A stretch of DNA of 61,096 nt. Source: an uncultured Candidatus Saccharibacteria bacterium. Its GTDB lineage: Bacteria > Patescibacteriota > Minisyncoccia > Phycocordibacterales > UBA9973. The notes beneath the pieces are model-generated. The model worked only from the letters and a program-made list of their open reading frames with translations. It did no database searches and had not been told where the DNA came from. Made by a program: the position numbers and the translations under genes. Each line of letters opens with the position of its first letter. Positions within the stretch are counted from its first letter, which is position 1. Below, piece after piece: positions 6,036-23,710 of this stretch. The stretch is taken from NCBI GenBank assembly GCA_964482735.1, contig CAYZYV010000003.1:1-61096 (forward strand), read 5' to 3'.

Positions 6036-6125
6036 TTCCCTAGTACAAAAATTAACAACCGCAAAGCATAGCTTTGCGGTTGATTTTATTTAATCTTGCT
6101 CACTACTTTAAAATGTCTGCTATAT

Positions 6126-6194
6126 ATTGGTGTCGTGTTTGCTTCCTTCTATTCGTGTCATTCGTTTTCATTCGTGGATTGGTGTCGTGTTTGA
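6126..6194 (+). repeat. Dispersed ~50-bp repeat family, array A
   Basis: ATTCGTGTCATTCG-N4-CATTCGTGGATTGGTGTCGTGTTTGA; the same unit recurs at 15.7, 18.1 and 19.3 kb. Confidence 0.9.
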
Positions 6195-6199
6195 TCCCC

Positions 6200-6256
6200 T
6201 TAGTGTTTAAAAATTATTTGTACCGTGCGAACAAAAATTCCGAAATCCATGAAAAT
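6200..6256 (+). repeat. 57-bp direct repeat duplicating the 3' end of the sugar transferase gene
   Basis: Identical to 7922-7978 except one synonymous change; the minus strand of both encodes IFMDFGIFVRTVQIIFKH*. Confidence 0.92.
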
Positions 6257-6258
6257 TA

Positions 6259-6327
6259 TAATCGTATCATTTAGTTGCTTTAATCGTATCATTATGATAC
6301 GATTAAAAGATAAAAATGATACGATTA
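6259..6327. promoter_or_regulatory. Symmetric four-site operator-like array over the Fic gene start
   Basis: TAATCGTATCAT at 6259 and 6281 (+); its reverse complement at 6294 and 6316 (-). 22-bp spacing; the last site includes the ATG. Confidence 0.75.
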
Positions 6328-7368
6328 AATAATAGACAAATTAATATTTTAGAAAAAATTACCTTAGGGGGAGAAGTTTCTTCCTCAGATGTTTTTAGTT
6401 ACCTAAACGAAAGGGTTTCATTAATTACCGTAAAACGTGATTTAGATTATTTGACAACGTTAAAATATTTAGAACGTAAAGGAAAAGGAAGATCAACTTT
6501 TTACCTAAAAACAATTTTGGGAACTTTATTCACCCCGATAAATGCGGAAGAGTATAACAAGGTAGATCCGGATAAGAGATCTGGTGATGATAGTTTTAAT
6601 TTTAAATTGTTTGAAAATTTCCCTAGAAGTTTATTTTTTGATGAAGAGAAAAAAGTTCTTGATACTGCAACTAAAAATTATAGTAAAAAGATAAAGAAAA
6701 TATCAAATGTAATAAAGTCAAAGGAGTTAGAAAGATTTGTTATTGAGCTTTCTTGGAAATCATCAAAGATAGAAGGTAATACTTATACGTTGTTAGATAC
6801 AGAAAAATTAATAAAAGAGGGAATTCCTTCTAATAAAAATACAAAAGAAGAAACAACAATGATTCTAAACCACAAAAAAGCTTTTTCCTTTGTTTTAAAG
6901 AATGTGAACCTTTTGTCTAAGAAAGGAATCAATTCTTCTTTTGTTGAAAAAGTCCACGAGATTTTAATAGATGGGCTAGGGGTAAAAAAAGGTGTTCGTA
7001 ATGGGTTGGTAGGCATAACAGGAACTAAATATAAACCCCTTGATAATAAATACCAAATCAATGAAGCTTTAGAGGAACTCTATAAAACAGTAAATAAAAT
7101 AGACGATGTATATAGTAGGGCACTAAGTTTGCTTGTTGGTATTTCTTATATACAACCATTTGAAGATGGGAATAAAAGAGCGGCACGCCTATTATCAAAT
7201 GCAATTCTTCTTGCATACAATTGTGCACCTTTGTCGTATCGAAGTGTTGATGAAGAAAAATATAGGGAATCAATCCTTGTTTTCTATGAAAAAAATTCTA
7301 TTATGCCAATGAAAAATATTTTTCTAAATCAATATCTGTTTTCTACTGAAAATTATCTTGTTAAATAA
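6316..7368 (+). CDS. Fic-family protein with N-terminal winged HTH
   Basis: N-terminal SLITVKRDLDYL...GKGRSTFY wHTH; SSKIEGN; Fic-like motif QPFEDGNKRAAR. Confidence 0.88.
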   Translation: MIRLNNRQINILEKITLGGEVSSSDVFSYLNERVSLITVKRDLDYLTTLKYLERKGKGRSTFYLKTILGTLFTPINAEEYNKVDPDKRSGDDSFNFKLFENFPRSLFFDEEKKVLDTATKNYSKKIKKISNVIKSKELERFVIELSWKSSKIEGNTYTLLDTEKLIKEGIPSNKNTKEETTMILNHKKAFSFVLKNVNLLSKKGINSSFVEKVHEILIDGLGVKKGVRNGLVGITGTKYKPLDNKYQINEALEELYKTVNKIDDVYSRALSLLVGISYIQPFEDGNKRAARLLSNAILLAYNCAPLSYRSVDEEKYRESILVFYEKNSIMPMKNIFLNQYLFSTENYLVK

Positions 7369-7452
7369 TTAGTAGTGTTGAACAGTATTGAGTTGATCGA
7401 CAAAAGAATTTTTAAGGAAAGTGCATCTTTAATTATTTTAACTATTAGAATT

Positions 7453-7827
7453 ATGAAAAATGGAAAAGGATTAAGTCAAAGTTTTTTATACACATTAGTT
7501 TATGTAATAATAGGAATATTTGTTGGGATTTTAGAATCTGCTTTTTTGACGGTATCAGTGCTTCCACTATTGTTTTTAATGTTGATGCACTATGCTTATG
7601 AAGATAAGAGTAATTTTTGGGAAAATAATTTGGGCGTCATTTTCTTGGCGGTATGCTTCGTTGTCTCAGCCGTAACAATTTCATTTCTTGGAATTCATGG
7701 TTATAAAAATGGTAAGAGATACGATAAGAGCCAGACAAACAAGAAAAAGTGGCTTATCATTGCCCTTATAGTAGAAGTTTTAATTTTAATACCAGCGCTG
7801 TACTTCTTTGTCGGAATAATTTCATAA
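7453..7827 (+). CDS. Hypothetical membrane protein (about 4 TM)
   Basis: Hydrophobic ORF; ATG at 7453 preferred over the GTG at 7375. Confidence 0.6.
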   Translation: MKNGKGLSQSFLYTLVYVIIGIFVGILESAFLTVSVLPLLFLMLMHYAYEDKSNFWENNLGVIFLAVCFVVSAVTISFLGIHGYKNGKRYDKSQTNKKKWLIIALIVEVLILIPALYFFVGIIS

Positions 7828-7921
7828 TTTTTGGGTGTTTTAAAATAGCTTTTAGCTTTTACTCATTTTTCTGGTAGTAATGACGGTCCTTTTTATAGTG
7901 TTTGCATCGTGTTTGAAACCT

Positions 7922-9211
7922 TTAGTGTTTAAAAATTATTTGTACCGTACGAACAAAAATTCCGAAATCCATGAAAATGTTTCTATTTTTAATATAATAC
8001 AAATCATATTCAAATTTTTCTTTTGATGATAAAACTGAATTAGCATATCGGTATTTTATTTGTGCCCAGCCGGTAAAACCAGGTTTAATAATCTGACGAA
8101 TTCTGTAGTGGGGGATTTCTTTGATAAGGGCACTGACGAATTCAGGCCTCTCTGGCCTAGGACCAAATAGAGCTAATTCGCCCTTAATTATGTTTATCAT
8201 TTGAGGAATTTCATCTATATGAAGTTTACGAATAACTTTTCCTACTTTTGTTATGCGATTATCATTTTCTGTCGTCCAACGTGCACCGTTTTCTTCTGCA
8301 TTTACTCTCATTGATCTCAACTTAATTATATTAAACTCCTTATCGTCTAGCCCAACTCTTTTTTGAGTATAAAATACTGGGCCTTTATCTTCAATGAAAA
8401 TAAACATAGCTATGATGAGAATAACAGGGGAGAGAATTATCAAACCAATTACAGCAAATAAGATTTCTACCAATCTAGAAATAATTTTATAAACAAGATC
8501 TCTTTTGCCATTAATATTTTCAATAATCCAAGATTCGGAAACATAATCAACTGGAATCCTGAACAAATACTTTTCATAAGCCTCTGAAATATCAAGGATG
8601 TCATTTTTATTCTTGCGAATGTCGTTTAGTAACAAAGAATTGAGATTCTCGGTGTTTGTATCAATAACAAAAACAGCTTTTTTGATGTCTTTCCATTTCA
8701 ATAGAGACTCCTCTAGATTTGAAGAATAGTGAATTATTTTTAAACCAATTTGTGGGTTTTCTGAAATAGTCTTATTTAAATTATCGAGATATTGATGATC
8801 CCCGATTAAAATAGCAGGTCTAGTTATTTGATAAGCAGAAATAGAATAAAAAGATCTACGAATCAAGAATGAGATGATACTAAATCCGAGTGCTTGAAAT
8901 AACAGGTTTGCTTTAGGAGAAATTCCAAAAGATGGAATTAGATAAAACATAAAGATACCAAAAACAAAAGAGACCATGATAGCAAGTCCGAACTGTCTAA
9001 GGTGAGGAATGGTCGGTTTTATTTTGTATATATCGTATAGATCAAAGAGATAAAAAATCAAAGCCCAAACGATATAAAGAATCATAAAAGGACCAAAATG
9101 TTTAATTATGATATCGTGATTTGTTTCGCCATATCTGACATAAAGGATGGTTAAAAGGGTTAGCCAAAAAGCCACAAAGTCTCCAGCGATAATAAAACCA
9201 ATTCTTTTCAT
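7922..9211 (-). CDS. Polyprenyl-phosphate sugar phosphotransferase (WcaJ/WbaP-like priming glycosyltransferase)
   Basis: 4-5 N-terminal TM segments; KLRSM, RITKVGKVIRKLHIDEIPQ, GPRPERP and KPGFTGWAQ motifs. Start reassigned to MKRIGF at 9211. Confidence 0.92.
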   Translation of the reverse strand: MKRIGFIIAGDFVAFWLTLLTILYVRYGETNHDIIIKHFGPFMILYIVWALIFYLFDLYDIYKIKPTIPHLRQFGLAIMVSFVFGIFMFYLIPSFGISPKANLLFQALGFSIISFLIRRSFYSISAYQITRPAILIGDHQYLDNLNKTISENPQIGLKIIHYSSNLEESLLKWKDIKKAVFVIDTNTENLNSLLLNDIRKNKNDILDISEAYEKYLFRIPVDYVSESWIIENINGKRDLVYKIISRLVEILFAVIGLIILSPVILIIAMFIFIEDKGPVFYTQKRVGLDDKEFNIIKLRSMRVNAEENGARWTTENDNRITKVGKVIRKLHIDEIPQMINIIKGELALFGPRPERPEFVSALIKEIPHYRIRQIIKPGFTGWAQIKYRYANSVLSSKEKFEYDLYYIKNRNIFMDFGIFVRTVQIIFKH

Positions 9212-9262
9212 ATATAACAATATATTACCCCAATCCAACAAGAAATCAAACACGACACAAAT

Positions 9263-18446: not shown

Positions 18447-19274
18447 ATGAATAACCAAAAAGACACACAAAGGACAACAACAAATAGTTACGGACAACTA
18501 GATGTCTCTGATGTAAAAGCCTTATCTGGTATAGCTGTTTATGGGCTTACAAACAAAAAGACAGAAAAGTTGGTCACTGCACTTTATCTCGTATCTGATT
18601 GTATGGATACAGATGATGCACTCAAGAGTAAGATTAGATTATTAGGGGTAGAATTATTGTCCGATATCTACCAATACTCTGTATTATCACCAGTCGAAAA
18701 ATCCTCATTTGTCGCCACTCCTATCTCTCGAGTTTACGAACTCCTTTCCTTCATTGAAATAGCAAAAACGATTGGTTTTATCTCTGAGATGAATGCAAGT
18801 ATTTTGAACCATGAATTCTCTAAATTAGCTGTTGATTTGAGAGAGAGTGTAAGCAAAGATCGACACTTTTCTTTCACTCTTGATGACAAGATGTTTGAGG
18901 TTGGTGATGATGTATCTGAAGATTTACAAAAGGGTAATCAGAGTCTATCAAGGACATCTGAAAACATGTCCGTTAGAAATTTTGCACACAATCATTTGAC
19001 CAATAACGTCTCTTACAAAGACCAAAGGTTTGATAAGAAAGAGACAGCTAAAAAGACACTTTCTCATCTCCAAGGACCAGCCGCTAGAGAAGATAGAATT
19101 AAGAGGATTATGAGCCTCATCAAGGACAAGAAAGATGTTTCAATAAAAGACATATCAATCTTCCTTCCAGACTATTCAGAAAAGACAATTCAGAGAGAAT
19201 TAAACGGACTCGTAGATAAAGGACAAATCAAAAAGACAGGAACTAAGAGATGGTCTCGCTACAAACTCGCATAG
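18447..19274 (+). CDS. Hypothetical protein with C-terminal DeoR-like wHTH and helical N-terminus
   Basis: C-terminal RIMSLIKDKKDVSIKDI...SEKTIQRELNGLVDKGQIKKTG.KRWSRY. Confidence 0.75.
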   Translation: MNNQKDTQRTTTNSYGQLDVSDVKALSGIAVYGLTNKKTEKLVTALYLVSDCMDTDDALKSKIRLLGVELLSDIYQYSVLSPVEKSSFVATPISRVYELLSFIEIAKTIGFISEMNASILNHEFSKLAVDLRESVSKDRHFSFTLDDKMFEVGDDVSEDLQKGNQSLSRTSENMSVRNFAHNHLTNNVSYKDQRFDKKETAKKTLSHLQGPAAREDRIKRIMSLIKDKKDVSIKDISIFLPDYSEKTIQRELNGLVDKGQIKKTGTKRWSRYKLA

Positions 19275-19294: not shown

Positions 19295-19440
19295 ATTCGT
19301 GTCATTCGCTTTCATTCGTGCATTTGTGTCGTGTTTGATTTCTCCCATTCGTGTCATTCGTCCCCATTCGTGTATTTGTGTCGCGTTTGAAACCTATTCG
19401 TGTCATTCGCCCCCATTCGTGTATTTGTGTCGCGTTTGTC
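19295..19440 (+). repeat. Dispersed ~50-bp repeat family, array D (3 units)
   Basis: Units at 19295, 19347 and 19396 (periods 52 and 49 bp). Confidence 0.92.
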
Positions 19441-19564
19441 CTCTTTACTTATCCACACCCCATAAATAGCCATATATATTTGCATATTTATTTACGCGAG
19501 TATATAATATATGCATATATTATCGTTGCTGGTAATTATTTATCGAATATGGTAATATATGATA

Positions 19565-20165
19565 TCTCGTAGTTCTACTGCGGGAAGAGAAGATCATTGA
19601 AAATTTAATACCAAAAAGTGTTAATACCAAACAGTTTTTGGCGACAGTTTTTTACACTTCACTTCGGTGATGGGTAAAGACTATTATTACATTTTCTTTG
19701 GTCGGATCCGTTTTGATTTCACAAAGTTTGATTTCAAATTTTTGATCAACACTCAATATTTTTGATAGAGGAAATAGAGAGTTTAAATCTAAAAGTTTGT
19801 ATTACATTTTTTGAAAATCAAAATGTGTATCGGCCCTGTCGACAAGGCAGATATGCTTGTCACACTCTTCAATTATATTGAGGGGATGGCTAAGCAGATT
19901 TTTGTTTAGTTTACGACTCTAGATTTTGTTTCCATTTCGTTTTCATCTTTTTTATCTGACAACTACTTTTGATAGAGAGGTTGTGAAGAGGATAGGAAGA
20001 TCATAAACTTGGTTACGAGGTTTAGATGTTTAGTAAAAAATTATTAGTGATGTTTCATTGCTAGTAATTAAAAGATACACACACATTAGTTTTTTTCTTT
20101 AAGTACATATTTTTTAGCAGTCGTACTTAATGATAAGTCGGAACTAATCTAAACGTGTATAAATT
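19565..20165 (+). ncRNA. Candidate long structured leader or ncRNA upstream of the S-layer-like gene
   Basis: No long ORF; many hairpins (TCAC-TTCG-GTGA, GACAAGGCA-GATA-TGCTTGTC) and nested stems at 20075-20160. Not matched to a known family. Confidence 0.45.
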
Positions 20166-22161: not shown

Positions 22162-22213
22162 ACAGCCGAGGTCGGACCTAGTACGAGGTCCGACCTCGGC
22201 TGTTATCCACAGG
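22162..22213. repeat. REP/REPIN-like palindrome copy 1 plus TTATCCACA box
   Basis: ACAGCCGAGGTCGGACCT-AGTACG-AGGTCCGACCTCGGCTGT (18-bp arms), followed by TATCCACAGG. Confidence 0.9.
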
Positions 22214-22332
22214 TTAAATAAAAGCCTTATTCCATTGCTTTTATTGACAAACACCTTGACTTATTGTTATATAAAATGATATAATATAAGTATAAGAGTT
22301 CTTTTTGTTAAACCTTTTAATCACATCTTGTT

Positions 22333-22713
22333 ATGGACAGATATCAAGAAACAATTCTTTATGAGTGCGTAAATGAATTTTGTTCACTGTACCACCAAAG
22401 AGTTGAAGAGCTAAAAGAAAAGATCAAGGTAAAAAAAATTTCTAAGGGGTTTGTTTTTTCCGAAATCATTAATCTATTGTATTTCAAATACAAAAAAGAG
22501 CTGGGGTATGAAGGGAATCTGTCGGGTTTTAAAAGCCTGATAGTTAGAGAAAAGAATAGATTAAGAAAAGAAAAAGACGAATTCTTGGAGTCCCAAGAAT
22601 TATACGAGCAGAATTTGGTTTCTGATTCAAAAGAAGTCCACATGGTGGAATGGGGAGACGATATTTCTAAGCTTGATTTAGAAAGTCAAATAAAACTCGG
22701 TTTGAATATTTGA
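22333..22713 (+). CDS. Hypothetical protein between REP copies
   Basis: 126-aa ORF with a promoter (TTGACT 22256, TATAAT 22280) and a terminator at about 22714-22745. Confidence 0.6.
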   Translation: MDRYQETILYECVNEFCSLYHQRVEELKEKIKVKKISKGFVFSEIINLLYFKYKKELGYEGNLSGFKSLIVREKNRLRKEKDEFLESQELYEQNLVSDSKEVHMVEWGDDISKLDLESQIKLGLNI

Positions 22714-22792
22714 AGAGTGAGAATAGTCATATTCTCACTCTTTTTTAATTTTTAACTTACATAGGCCAGGGTCTACCTCTATCTAGTTTCCA

Positions 22793-22843
22793 ACAGCCGA
22801 GGTCGGACCTCGTACTAGGTCCGACCTCGGCTGTTATCCACAG
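22793..22843. repeat. REP/REPIN-like palindrome copy 2 plus TTATCCACA box
   Basis: Same 18-bp arms with the loop inverted (CGTACT). Confidence 0.9.
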
Positions 22844-22894
22844 ATTTTTAAAATATTACACCACATTTGAATAGCCATGTGTTATAATCAAAAC

Positions 22895-23566
22895 ATGACA
22901 ACTAGAAAAGTCTCTTTTGCACCGGGAGAGTTTTATCACGTATATAATCGCGGTAATGACAAGCGAGAGATTTTTCATGACCAACAAGATTATTCTTATT
23001 TCTTAAAAACCTTAAATATTTTTAATACTAAGATGAGTCTGCGCCTTCGATATGTGTCGAAGGATTTTTTTATTTGCAACAATAATCCCGGACTTGTCTC
23101 CATCGGTTGCTATTGCTTAATGCCTAATCATTTTCATCTTTTAATCACACAAACAGAAGATGGAGATATTTCAAAATTCATGCAGAAAGTCATGACTTCC
23201 TATGTGATGTATTATAATCAAAAATACAAAAGAACAGGGTCTTTGTTTGAAGGTAAGTTTAAATCAAAACATATTGGTGATGATAGGTATTTTAAATATT
23301 TATTTTCCTATGTGCACTTAAACCCAATAAAATTAATAGAACCTAAATGGAAAACAGAAGGAATTAAGAATCAAGAAAAAGCCTTAGAATTTTTGGAAAA
23401 ATATGAATACTCTAGTTATGGGAAATATGCAAAAGGAAAAGATAAATATAACATACTCAATACATCTGTTTTCCCAGAATATTTTCCAACGAAAGAATTA
23501 TTTAAAAAAGATATCTTTGATTGGTTAACCTATGGTGATGAATGCTTAGCTGACGAAGGAGGATAA
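22895..23566 (+). CDS. REP-associated tyrosine transposase (RAYT, Y1/HUH family)
   Basis: YHVYNRGNDKREIF, YCLMPNHFHLL (HUH), LFEGKFKS, Y.HLNP and YEYSSY motifs; flanked by REP palindromes. Confidence 0.92.
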   Translation: MTTRKVSFAPGEFYHVYNRGNDKREIFHDQQDYSYFLKTLNIFNTKMSLRLRYVSKDFFICNNNPGLVSIGCYCLMPNHFHLLITQTEDGDISKFMQKVMTSYVMYYNQKYKRTGSLFEGKFKSKHIGDDRYFKYLFSYVHLNPIKLIEPKWKTEGIKNQEKALEFLEKYEYSSYGKYAKGKDKYNILNTSVFPEYFPTKELFKKDIFDWLTYGDECLADEGG

Positions 23567-23577
23567 AAGCAAGGCAA

Positions 23578-23633
23578 GACCTAGTACGAGGTCGGACCTC
23601 GTACTAGGTCCGACCTCGGCTGTTATCCACAGG
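23578..23633. repeat. REP/REPIN-like palindrome copy 3 plus TTATCCACA box
   Basis: GACCTAGTACGAGG-TCGGA-CCTCGTACTAGGTC overlaps the standard hairpin, giving two alternative folds. Confidence 0.88.
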
Positions 23634-23710
23634 TTTAATTATGGTTGGAGTAAGATTAGATTTAAAAGTATAATGAAAATGTTGGAATTACAAGTATTTA
23701 TAATAAATAT

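Follow-up and report, generated by a model that had tools for sequence, protein, structure and literature searches.

An ATTCGTG repeat family in a CPR bacterial genome, probably the terminal arms of a miniature GxxExxY nuclease cassette

Short repeats that lie between bacterial genes have been described in several forms, some with a dedicated gene and some without one. Mycobacterial MIRUs are units of 40-100 bp, often in tandem, which occupy the spacers of operons, are oriented with the genes, touch stop codons and vary in number between strains; to our knowledge they have neither an associated gene nor a cassette with inverted arms. Rickettsia palindromic elements are palindromic short repeats that are tolerated in frame within protein genes, and we know of no enzyme linked to them. 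Two further systems pair a repeat with a gene: in REPIN/RAYT (PMC3116915, PMC3337134), a usually single-copy gene is flanked by an inverted short repeat that is also dispersed in intergenic DNA; and in Ssn/NTS (SRM) (PMC11893778), the gene of a small single-domain nuclease is framed by a multicopy repeat, at which cleavage has been shown for Ssn.

The repeat considered here was recognized in a stretch of 61,096 nucleotides (‘the window’, C3:1-61096, where C numbers denote contigs of the genome) from an assembly of 630 kb in 5 contigs, with 34% G+C. That genome is called G000 below; other G numbers denote compared genomes, and L numbers related strains or contigs. Relatives of the window’s proteins are labelled Candidatus Nomurabacteria or Paceibacteria (Parcubacteria within CPR). 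As argued in the following sections, the repeat unit is probably the terminal inverted arm of a miniature cassette whose sole gene encodes a GxxExxY nuclease (PF13366/TIGR04256, PD-(D/E)XK fold), and the arrays in the window are, on that same reading, gene-less copies of the arm. On this view, the unit system would be selfish or semi-domesticated DNA, of a design that the literature searched describes for other nuclease families only.

The repeat unit, its arrays and the elements entangled with them

The core of the unit comprises 41-43 nt and reads ATTCGTGTCATTCG-N4/5-ATTCGTGTATTTGTGTCGTGT(TTG); the full unit, ATTCGTGTCATTCG-N4/5-ATTCGTG-N-ATT(T/G)GTGTCGTGTTTG, is followed by a pyrimidine-rich spacer of 5-9 nt, giving a period of 49-52 nt. 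Each unit is composed of four to five ATTCGTG-type sub-repeats of ~9-10 nt, approximately one per helical turn. Four arrays of such units are found in the window (Table 1), all of them intergenic and all on one strand (+), and the pattern ATTCGTGTCATTCGNNNNNATTCGTG, allowing at most 2 mismatches, matches 8 times there, always on the plus strand, where 0.00 matches are expected (100 shuffles). When folded as a single strand, the unit performs no better than shuffled sequence on either strand (z-scores of +0.7 to +1.3). The initial annotation had described a dispersed, tandemly arrayed, non-palindromic family of ATTCGTG sub-repeats, with arrays at these four places, and was correct in both respects. 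It had also described the copies as intergenic and uniformly oriented, which holds within the window and fails for the genome as a whole, where a profile search located ~22 units, full or partial, spread over ~12 loci, three contigs and both strands, with one unit lying inside valS.

Tandem Repeats Finder assigns a period of 52 and 2.5 copies to the array at 15667-15819, and a period of 49 and 2.9 copies (85% matches) to the array at 19295-19444. The genes that neighbor the units in the window are those for Fic, a sugar transferase, a small GIY-YIG protein, ftsK, recA and a 275-residue HTH protein. When the arrays were compared with Rfam, no family reached its gathering threshold. Coding or peptide repeats were rejected, as the periods (49-52 nt) are not divisible by three; the ORFs that run across the arrays are artefacts. 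The initial annotation’s exclusion of CRISPR stands, as the variable stretches are only 4-5 and 5-9 nt long and there are no unique spacers of repeat length.

Table 1. Positions of the units, of the elements that interrupt them and of the GxxExxY cassette in G000 (window positions unless a contig is given)
Feature	Position	Strand	Remark
Array of 1.5 units (half + full)	6125-6199	+	Adjoined the minus-strand sugar-transferase gene at its stop codon until arrival of the Fic cassette
Unit tail	7901-7921	+	Belongs to the 72-bp direct duplication on either side of the Fic cassette
Outer half of a unit (ATTTGTGTCGTGTTTG)	9241-9264	-	Remainder displaced by insertion of the GIY-YIG cassette at 9263-9577
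Array of two degenerate half units and two full units	15667-15819	+	Outer end 2 nt from the ftsK stop codon
Unit 1 and inner part of unit 2, between ftsK and the HTH gene	18136-18220	+	Stands where a REP-like palindrome (18100-18135) would have its right arm
131-bp gene-less element inside unit 2, termini TCCCCACACC/GGTGTGGGGA	18221-18351	.	TTTG target duplication; GIY-YIG cassette family
Outer part of split unit 2	18350-18370	+	Separated from the inner part by the 131-bp insert
Array of three full units, 49-52 nt period	19295-19444	+	21 nt after the HTH gene stop codon
GIY-YIG family copies	9263-9577 (full), 18221-18351; C4 97951-98265, C4 108386-108515, C1 129928-130045		
GxxExxY cassette of G000	C4 131103-131585		Between nusG and rplK, outside the window

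Some of the units have been disrupted by other elements. The GIY-YIG mini-cassette consists of an 84-residue gene and a promoter-like sequence between terminal inverted repeats of ~20 bp (CCCCACACCYATATTTTTAT), and gene-less derivatives of the same family measure 118-131 bp. The 131-bp insert within the second unit upstream of the HTH gene is absent from L075, which displays a clean empty site, and an insert of this family occupies a different position in each of three strains (the window, L137 and L136), accompanied by the 4-nt duplications TTTG, TTCG and GCTT; two of the three positions lie within ATT(T/C)GTG sub-repeats. The GIY-YIG elements are a separate family that inserted into the units, rather than elements bordered by the repeat as first proposed. 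The isolated unit tail that had been reported at 9243-9262 is real, and exists because a full GIY-YIG cassette split a unit.

The other reported tail, at 7907-7921, is also real and belongs to a direct duplication of 72 bp (6185-6256 = 7907-7978, 94% identity) that contains a unit tail together with the 3' end of the sugar-transferase gene. The two copies bracket ~1.65 kb of DNA with the Fic gene (6316-7368) and a gene for a 150-residue membrane protein (7375-7827). This DNA has the appearance of an insertion in which the sugar-transferase gene regained its 3' end. The repeat had been regarded as a border of the Fic cassette; its presence on the flanks stems from this duplication.

The IS200-like Y1_Tnp gene (22877-23566, in a region spanning 22203-23640) carries on both sides a palindromic repeat (..GGACCTCGTACGAGGTCCGACCTCGGCTGTTATCCACAG) that has at least 10 copies in the genome, with termini that mimic DnaA boxes; half of such a repeat, at 18100-18135, immediately precedes the array at 18136. 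Transposase gene and palindrome together are a classical REP/RAYT arrangement. The perfect TTATCCACA boxes (at 18108 and 19449) are mostly termini of this palindromic repeat, and a reading of the region as oriC with DnaA boxes was rejected. It might be supposed, from a distance of only 3.4 kb between the Y1_Tnp gene and the arrays, that this transposase mobilises the ATTCGTG units in the manner in which RAYTs mobilise REPs. That explanation is largely refuted and appears very improbable: relatives of the transposase occur in 13/15 repeat-bearing and 19/25 repeat-free genomes (p = 0.69), the gene is flanked by the different, palindromic family, and the ATTCGTG units have no hairpin. Elsewhere in the window, the match to 23S rRNA (32321-35881) covers 3.56 kb for a model of 2.9 kb and encloses two matches to tRNA models, at 35073-35149 and 35160-35233 (tRNA-Glu), which together suggest an intervening sequence in the rRNA gene.

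Close strains, defined as contigs with an HTH protein 97-99% identical to that of the window (DNA identity 92-97%), differ in their arrays by whole units. L075 lacks exactly one of the units that follow ftsK in the window, and behind the HTH gene L136 carries two units where the window and L137 carry three; relatives with 79-84% identity in the HTH protein display remnants, an inverted unit or none. Such changes in unit number were seen among the close strains, but no ATTCGTG unit was found in them at a new locus. A single Logan contig was retrieved by look-up of the exact protein, and its arrays match those of the window without a difference. The same contig diverges sharply at about 19860-20100, a strain-variable stretch upstream of the gene for a 578-residue peptidoglycan-binding protein.

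The GxxExxY cassette and its arms

Inverted units spaced 350-450 bp apart enclose a GxxExxY gene (TIGR04256, PF13366) in G000, G162, G155, G118 (two copies) and G128. The resulting cassette is ~450-480 bp long and consists, in order, of a reverse-complement unit, the nuclease gene and a forward unit. Such arms bracket the gene in 9/9 members of the subfamily that were examined, and the units of the window match them; the nine cassettes come from eight genomes or metagenome contigs and represent at least five genomic contexts. The spacer between nusG and rplK is filled by the cassette in five genomes of five families; in eight other genomes it is a spacer of 20-190 nt with no unit. Exact-sequence look-up yielded three further subfamily members, located between recR and rplU, after a gene for a VTT-domain protein and before PrgI/TraC-like genes, and the cassettes on those three contigs again possess inverted units on both sides, starting right after the upstream stop codon.

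The arms are also part of the reading frame that they enclose. For most cassettes, the left arm supplies the start codon and the residues M-x-x-N-D-T-N (in the frame ..DTNTRM-x-x-NDTN), and the right arm encodes the C-terminus KPIRVIR-x-x-S (I-R-V-I-R-x-x-S) and the stop codon. Residues P117, I118, R119, I121 and R122 are at least 90% conserved among 26 homologues of 62-90% identity.

The GxxExxY protein of G000 is 125 residues long, and its structure was predicted with a pLDDT of 88.5. When this model was used for a fold search against the PDB, the best matches were PD-(D/E)XK nucleases of the lambda-exonuclease, Cas4 and RecB/AddB types; a search of the PDB with the sequence of the nuclease gave no matches. 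E30, D68 and K82 are invariant in the 26 homologues, and the cassette proteins have an acidic D or E two positions ahead of the lysine. Judged by predicted fold and residue conservation, the protein looks like an active nuclease.

These observations bear on a second explanation, according to which the units would be an older, host-level intergenic element (for example, a DNA or mRNA site for a host factor) and GxxExxY a homing-type gene that inserts between the two units of an inverted doublet, the units being its target. The conserved C-terminal motif KPIRVIR is part of the family’s domain and is encoded by the arm itself, so that an arm derived from the gene fits better than an unrelated target. 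Moreover, the two-armed cassette has at least five different genomic settings and, like solo units, stands directly behind a stop codon, and the empty nusG-rplK sites in eight genomes hold only short unrelated spacers and no doublet. The explanation is weakened by the coding contribution of the arm and by those empty sites, and is considered unlikely; the points in its favor, which concern the distribution of the units, are given below.

Between families, GxxExxY proteins are 59-72% identical, versus 72-78% for NusG (a small comparison). This similar degree of divergence, together with the shared nusG-rplK position in five families, is as compatible with long vertical residence and losses as with mobility.

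GxxExxY domains of another subfamily were observed inside long reading frames of RecG (L036, L037, L040 and L041; genomes G062, G124, G213 and G162) and of LepA (L038, from G226); the residues that flank the domain in the LepA frame, RRLTQTMAQTTQTE, resemble the translated arms of a different repeat. An SSB-like protein (ORF 2149-2637 of L032, G128:C24) has a C-terminal insert, INADGQTTQINADADQRESASNQRKSAS, that resembles yet another translated short-repeat family.

Distribution, insertion sites and orientation

At the level of the order, 33/300 other genomes have at least one match to the unit, and three or more matches occur in ~20 genomes from many families; within the window’s own genus, the repeat is present in G000 itself and in 1/24 other genomes (G024). 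The TIGR04256 gene was identified in 13/15 repeat-bearing versus 2/25 repeat-free genomes (Fisher p = 8e-7), and among the 12 members of the window’s genus in this 40-genome panel it was present only in G000 and G024, the two repeat carriers. An association with small nuclease genes, above all GxxExxY, which the initial annotation had named among the families to check, is seen both in this count and in the bracketing of the gene by its arms (9/9). The exceptions that carry the repeat without a GxxExxY gene are G027 and G057. G024 (5 contigs) has many units, an empty nusG-rplK spacer and only a GxxExxY gene of another subfamily that does not possess these arms, and G027 (8 contigs) has many units, an empty nusG-rplK spacer and no GxxExxY gene. 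Units therefore persist in both genomes without a detectable cognate gene, unless that gene was lost in an assembly gap.

Identity of the 41-nt core averages 0.90 among the copies of one genome and ~0.88 when genomes of different families are compared; the corresponding NusG proteins are 72-78% identical, versus ~88% for the core, and the variable positions of the core are concentrated in its internal N4-5 spacer. Inverted doublets, (-)(+), with units 15-25 bp apart, are found in G024, G027, G118, G124, G162, G226 and G277, with none in the window, and some units outside G000 form short tandem runs. The frequency of such doublets in other genomes, the retention of many well-conserved units in G024 and G027 without an arm-type gene, and the conservation of the unit across families would all suit a host element into which the nuclease gene had homed. 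Units are, however, absent from roughly 90% of the genomes of the order, and no general host function is needed to account for them.

The same distribution can be set against a simpler explanation, in which the units are plain MIRU-like VNTR repeats that spread by slippage and recombination without any dedicated protein, and their link to GxxExxY is incidental. Arrays that differ by whole units between strains are what such repeats would produce, and the units resemble mycobacterial MIRUs in being intergenic, often within operons, and in abutting stop codons. Slippage cannot, however, account for copies at unlinked loci, for inverted arms around a single gene family (9/9), for a co-occurrence of 13/15 versus 2/25 genomes or for an identity of 88% across families in a non-coding 41-mer, and this explanation is regarded as improbable.

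Five spacers of ribosomal-protein operons contain a unit in G024, and the orthologous spacers of G000 (8-38 nt) are empty; the units of G027 occupy yet other spacers than those of G024. Comparison of the filled with the empty sites at the five spacers, which are strongly diverged, revealed no recognisable target-site duplication. The orientation of the inserted units follows the genes: when all loci collected were considered, with the stop codons of ORFs of at least 100 residues, 35/36 stop-abutting units were found to aim their outer end (..GTGTCGTGT) at the stop codon (p = 1e-9). The array at 19295-19444 is an exception, with its inner end facing the upstream stop codon. Outside the window, units of G000 that run against the window orientation lie directly 3' of the stop codons of argS, gatC, an ftsX-like gene and nusG. 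The unit within valS (C3 137543-137586, outside the window) is read in frame, and gives the ValRS of G000 an insert of 14 residues, PKHDTNTQMETNDA, after HRIPVWY that six relatives do not have. The idea that a small ORF within the unit couples translation, as in MIRUs, was considered and rejected as inconsistent, since it applied at one G024 site only.

A role of the units as operators of the 275-residue HTH protein (18447-19274), or as polar sequences that orient FtsK, is suggested by the arrays on both sides of the HTH gene and of ftsK in G000, and by a homologue of the HTH gene in G027 that also adjoins a unit. Nevertheless, a unit lies within 3 kb of only 5/141 loci that encode relatives of the HTH protein, units occur in unrelated operons in other genomes, and ~22 copies per genome with an orientation set by gene ends are incompatible with a KOPS-like motif. 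Both versions of this explanation are largely refuted and scarcely merit belief. The initial annotation’s speculation on a polar or FtsK-related role falls with them, given the low number of units, the 35/36 that follow gene ends and the quite different loci (ribosomal-protein operon spacers) at which the units of relatives are placed. Its more general proposal of protein-binding or recombination sites pointed in the right direction, because the unit is (on the reading preferred here) the end sequence of a nuclease gene cassette.

If the units are arms of the GxxExxY cassette, their present arrangement might have arisen in a few steps. Single arms would have been copied into other intergenic spacers, typically landing just behind a stop codon and with the outer end turned toward the gene, and arrays could then have grown or shrunk by whole units through slippage or unequal recombination. 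The ATTCGTG sub-repeats are candidate recognition sites for the GxxExxY nuclease, which, by analogy with RAYT/REPIN and Ssn/NTS, may bind or nick there and so promote both the copying of the units and the uniformity of their sequence. From that analogy we infer that recognition and cleavage of the units by the nuclease would be the means of their spread. A broader possibility, which we hold only tentatively and consider less likely than not, is that GxxExxY proteins serve as dedicated enzymes for minimal repeat-armed elements, a class that did not turn up in the literature searched. In such elements, a PD-(D/E)XK nuclease of ~125 residues would read arrays of ~9-10-nt sub-repeats (here ATTCGTG), nick them and thereby drive the copying of the arms as solo units, doublets and tandem arrays, after stop codons or in frame in essential genes.

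Relation to known repeat systems

GxxExxY (PF13366) is a common and very large family of small bacterial proteins, annotated as ‘hypothetical nucleases’ and without an assigned role. Few papers in the literature searched mention GxxExxY, and repeats, to judge from titles and abstracts, are not the subject of those listed; the match for PDDEXK_3 was a general survey of the superfamily. No inverted-arm GxxExxY cassette was found in that literature. The link of this family to a conserved and countable DNA repeat offers a direct and cheap test, that of the protein against its own arm sequence. If the proposed relationship is true, the cassette would represent a third enzyme class among nuclease-plus-repeat systems, as the PD-(D/E)XK counterpart of RAYT/REPIN and Ssn/NTS. 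For the annotation of streamlined CPR genomes, it would account for odd intergenic repeats, spurious ‘MTRI...’ extensions of ORFs, short in-frame inserts in essential genes and breaks between assembly contigs.

The units share comparatively little with KOPS, a dense short motif with an orientation set by the replichores: there are only ~22 units per genome and their orientation tracks gene ends, although an assembly of 5 contigs does not allow replichores to be defined. The resemblance to VNTRs of the MIRU type is closer, in that tandem units are found in operon spacers and differ by one unit between strains at two arrays; in contrast to MIRUs, the present units are conserved across families and tied to a gene cassette with inverted arms. 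They resemble Rickettsia palindromic elements in their capacity for in-frame insertion into an essential gene, here as 14 residues in ValRS.

The two systems that possess a dedicated gene provide the nearest comparisons. As in Ssn/NTS, copies of the repeat stand on either side of the gene, and gene and repeat co-occur across genomes. However, Ssn is a GIY-YIG nuclease (cd10448) and its repeat a hairpin that is cut as single-stranded DNA, whereas the enzyme of the present cassette is a GxxExxY protein, its repeat an unstructured ATTCGTG array and its cleavage of that array putative. As in REPIN/RAYT, a gene that is usually present once per genome lies between inverted copies of a repeat that is also scattered through intergenic DNA, where singlets, inverted doublets and clusters are all found, and the gene appears to have long resided at one locus. 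The differences from that system are of four kinds: the enzyme is a PD-(D/E)XK nuclease of ~125 residues instead of a Y1/HUH transposase; the unit has neither palindrome nor hairpin, whereas a REP is an imperfect palindrome that forms a hairpin; the Y1 transposase that the window does contain is flanked by a different, palindromic repeat and does not co-occur with the units; and the arms of the GxxExxY cassette overlap the start and stop codons of the gene that they enclose.
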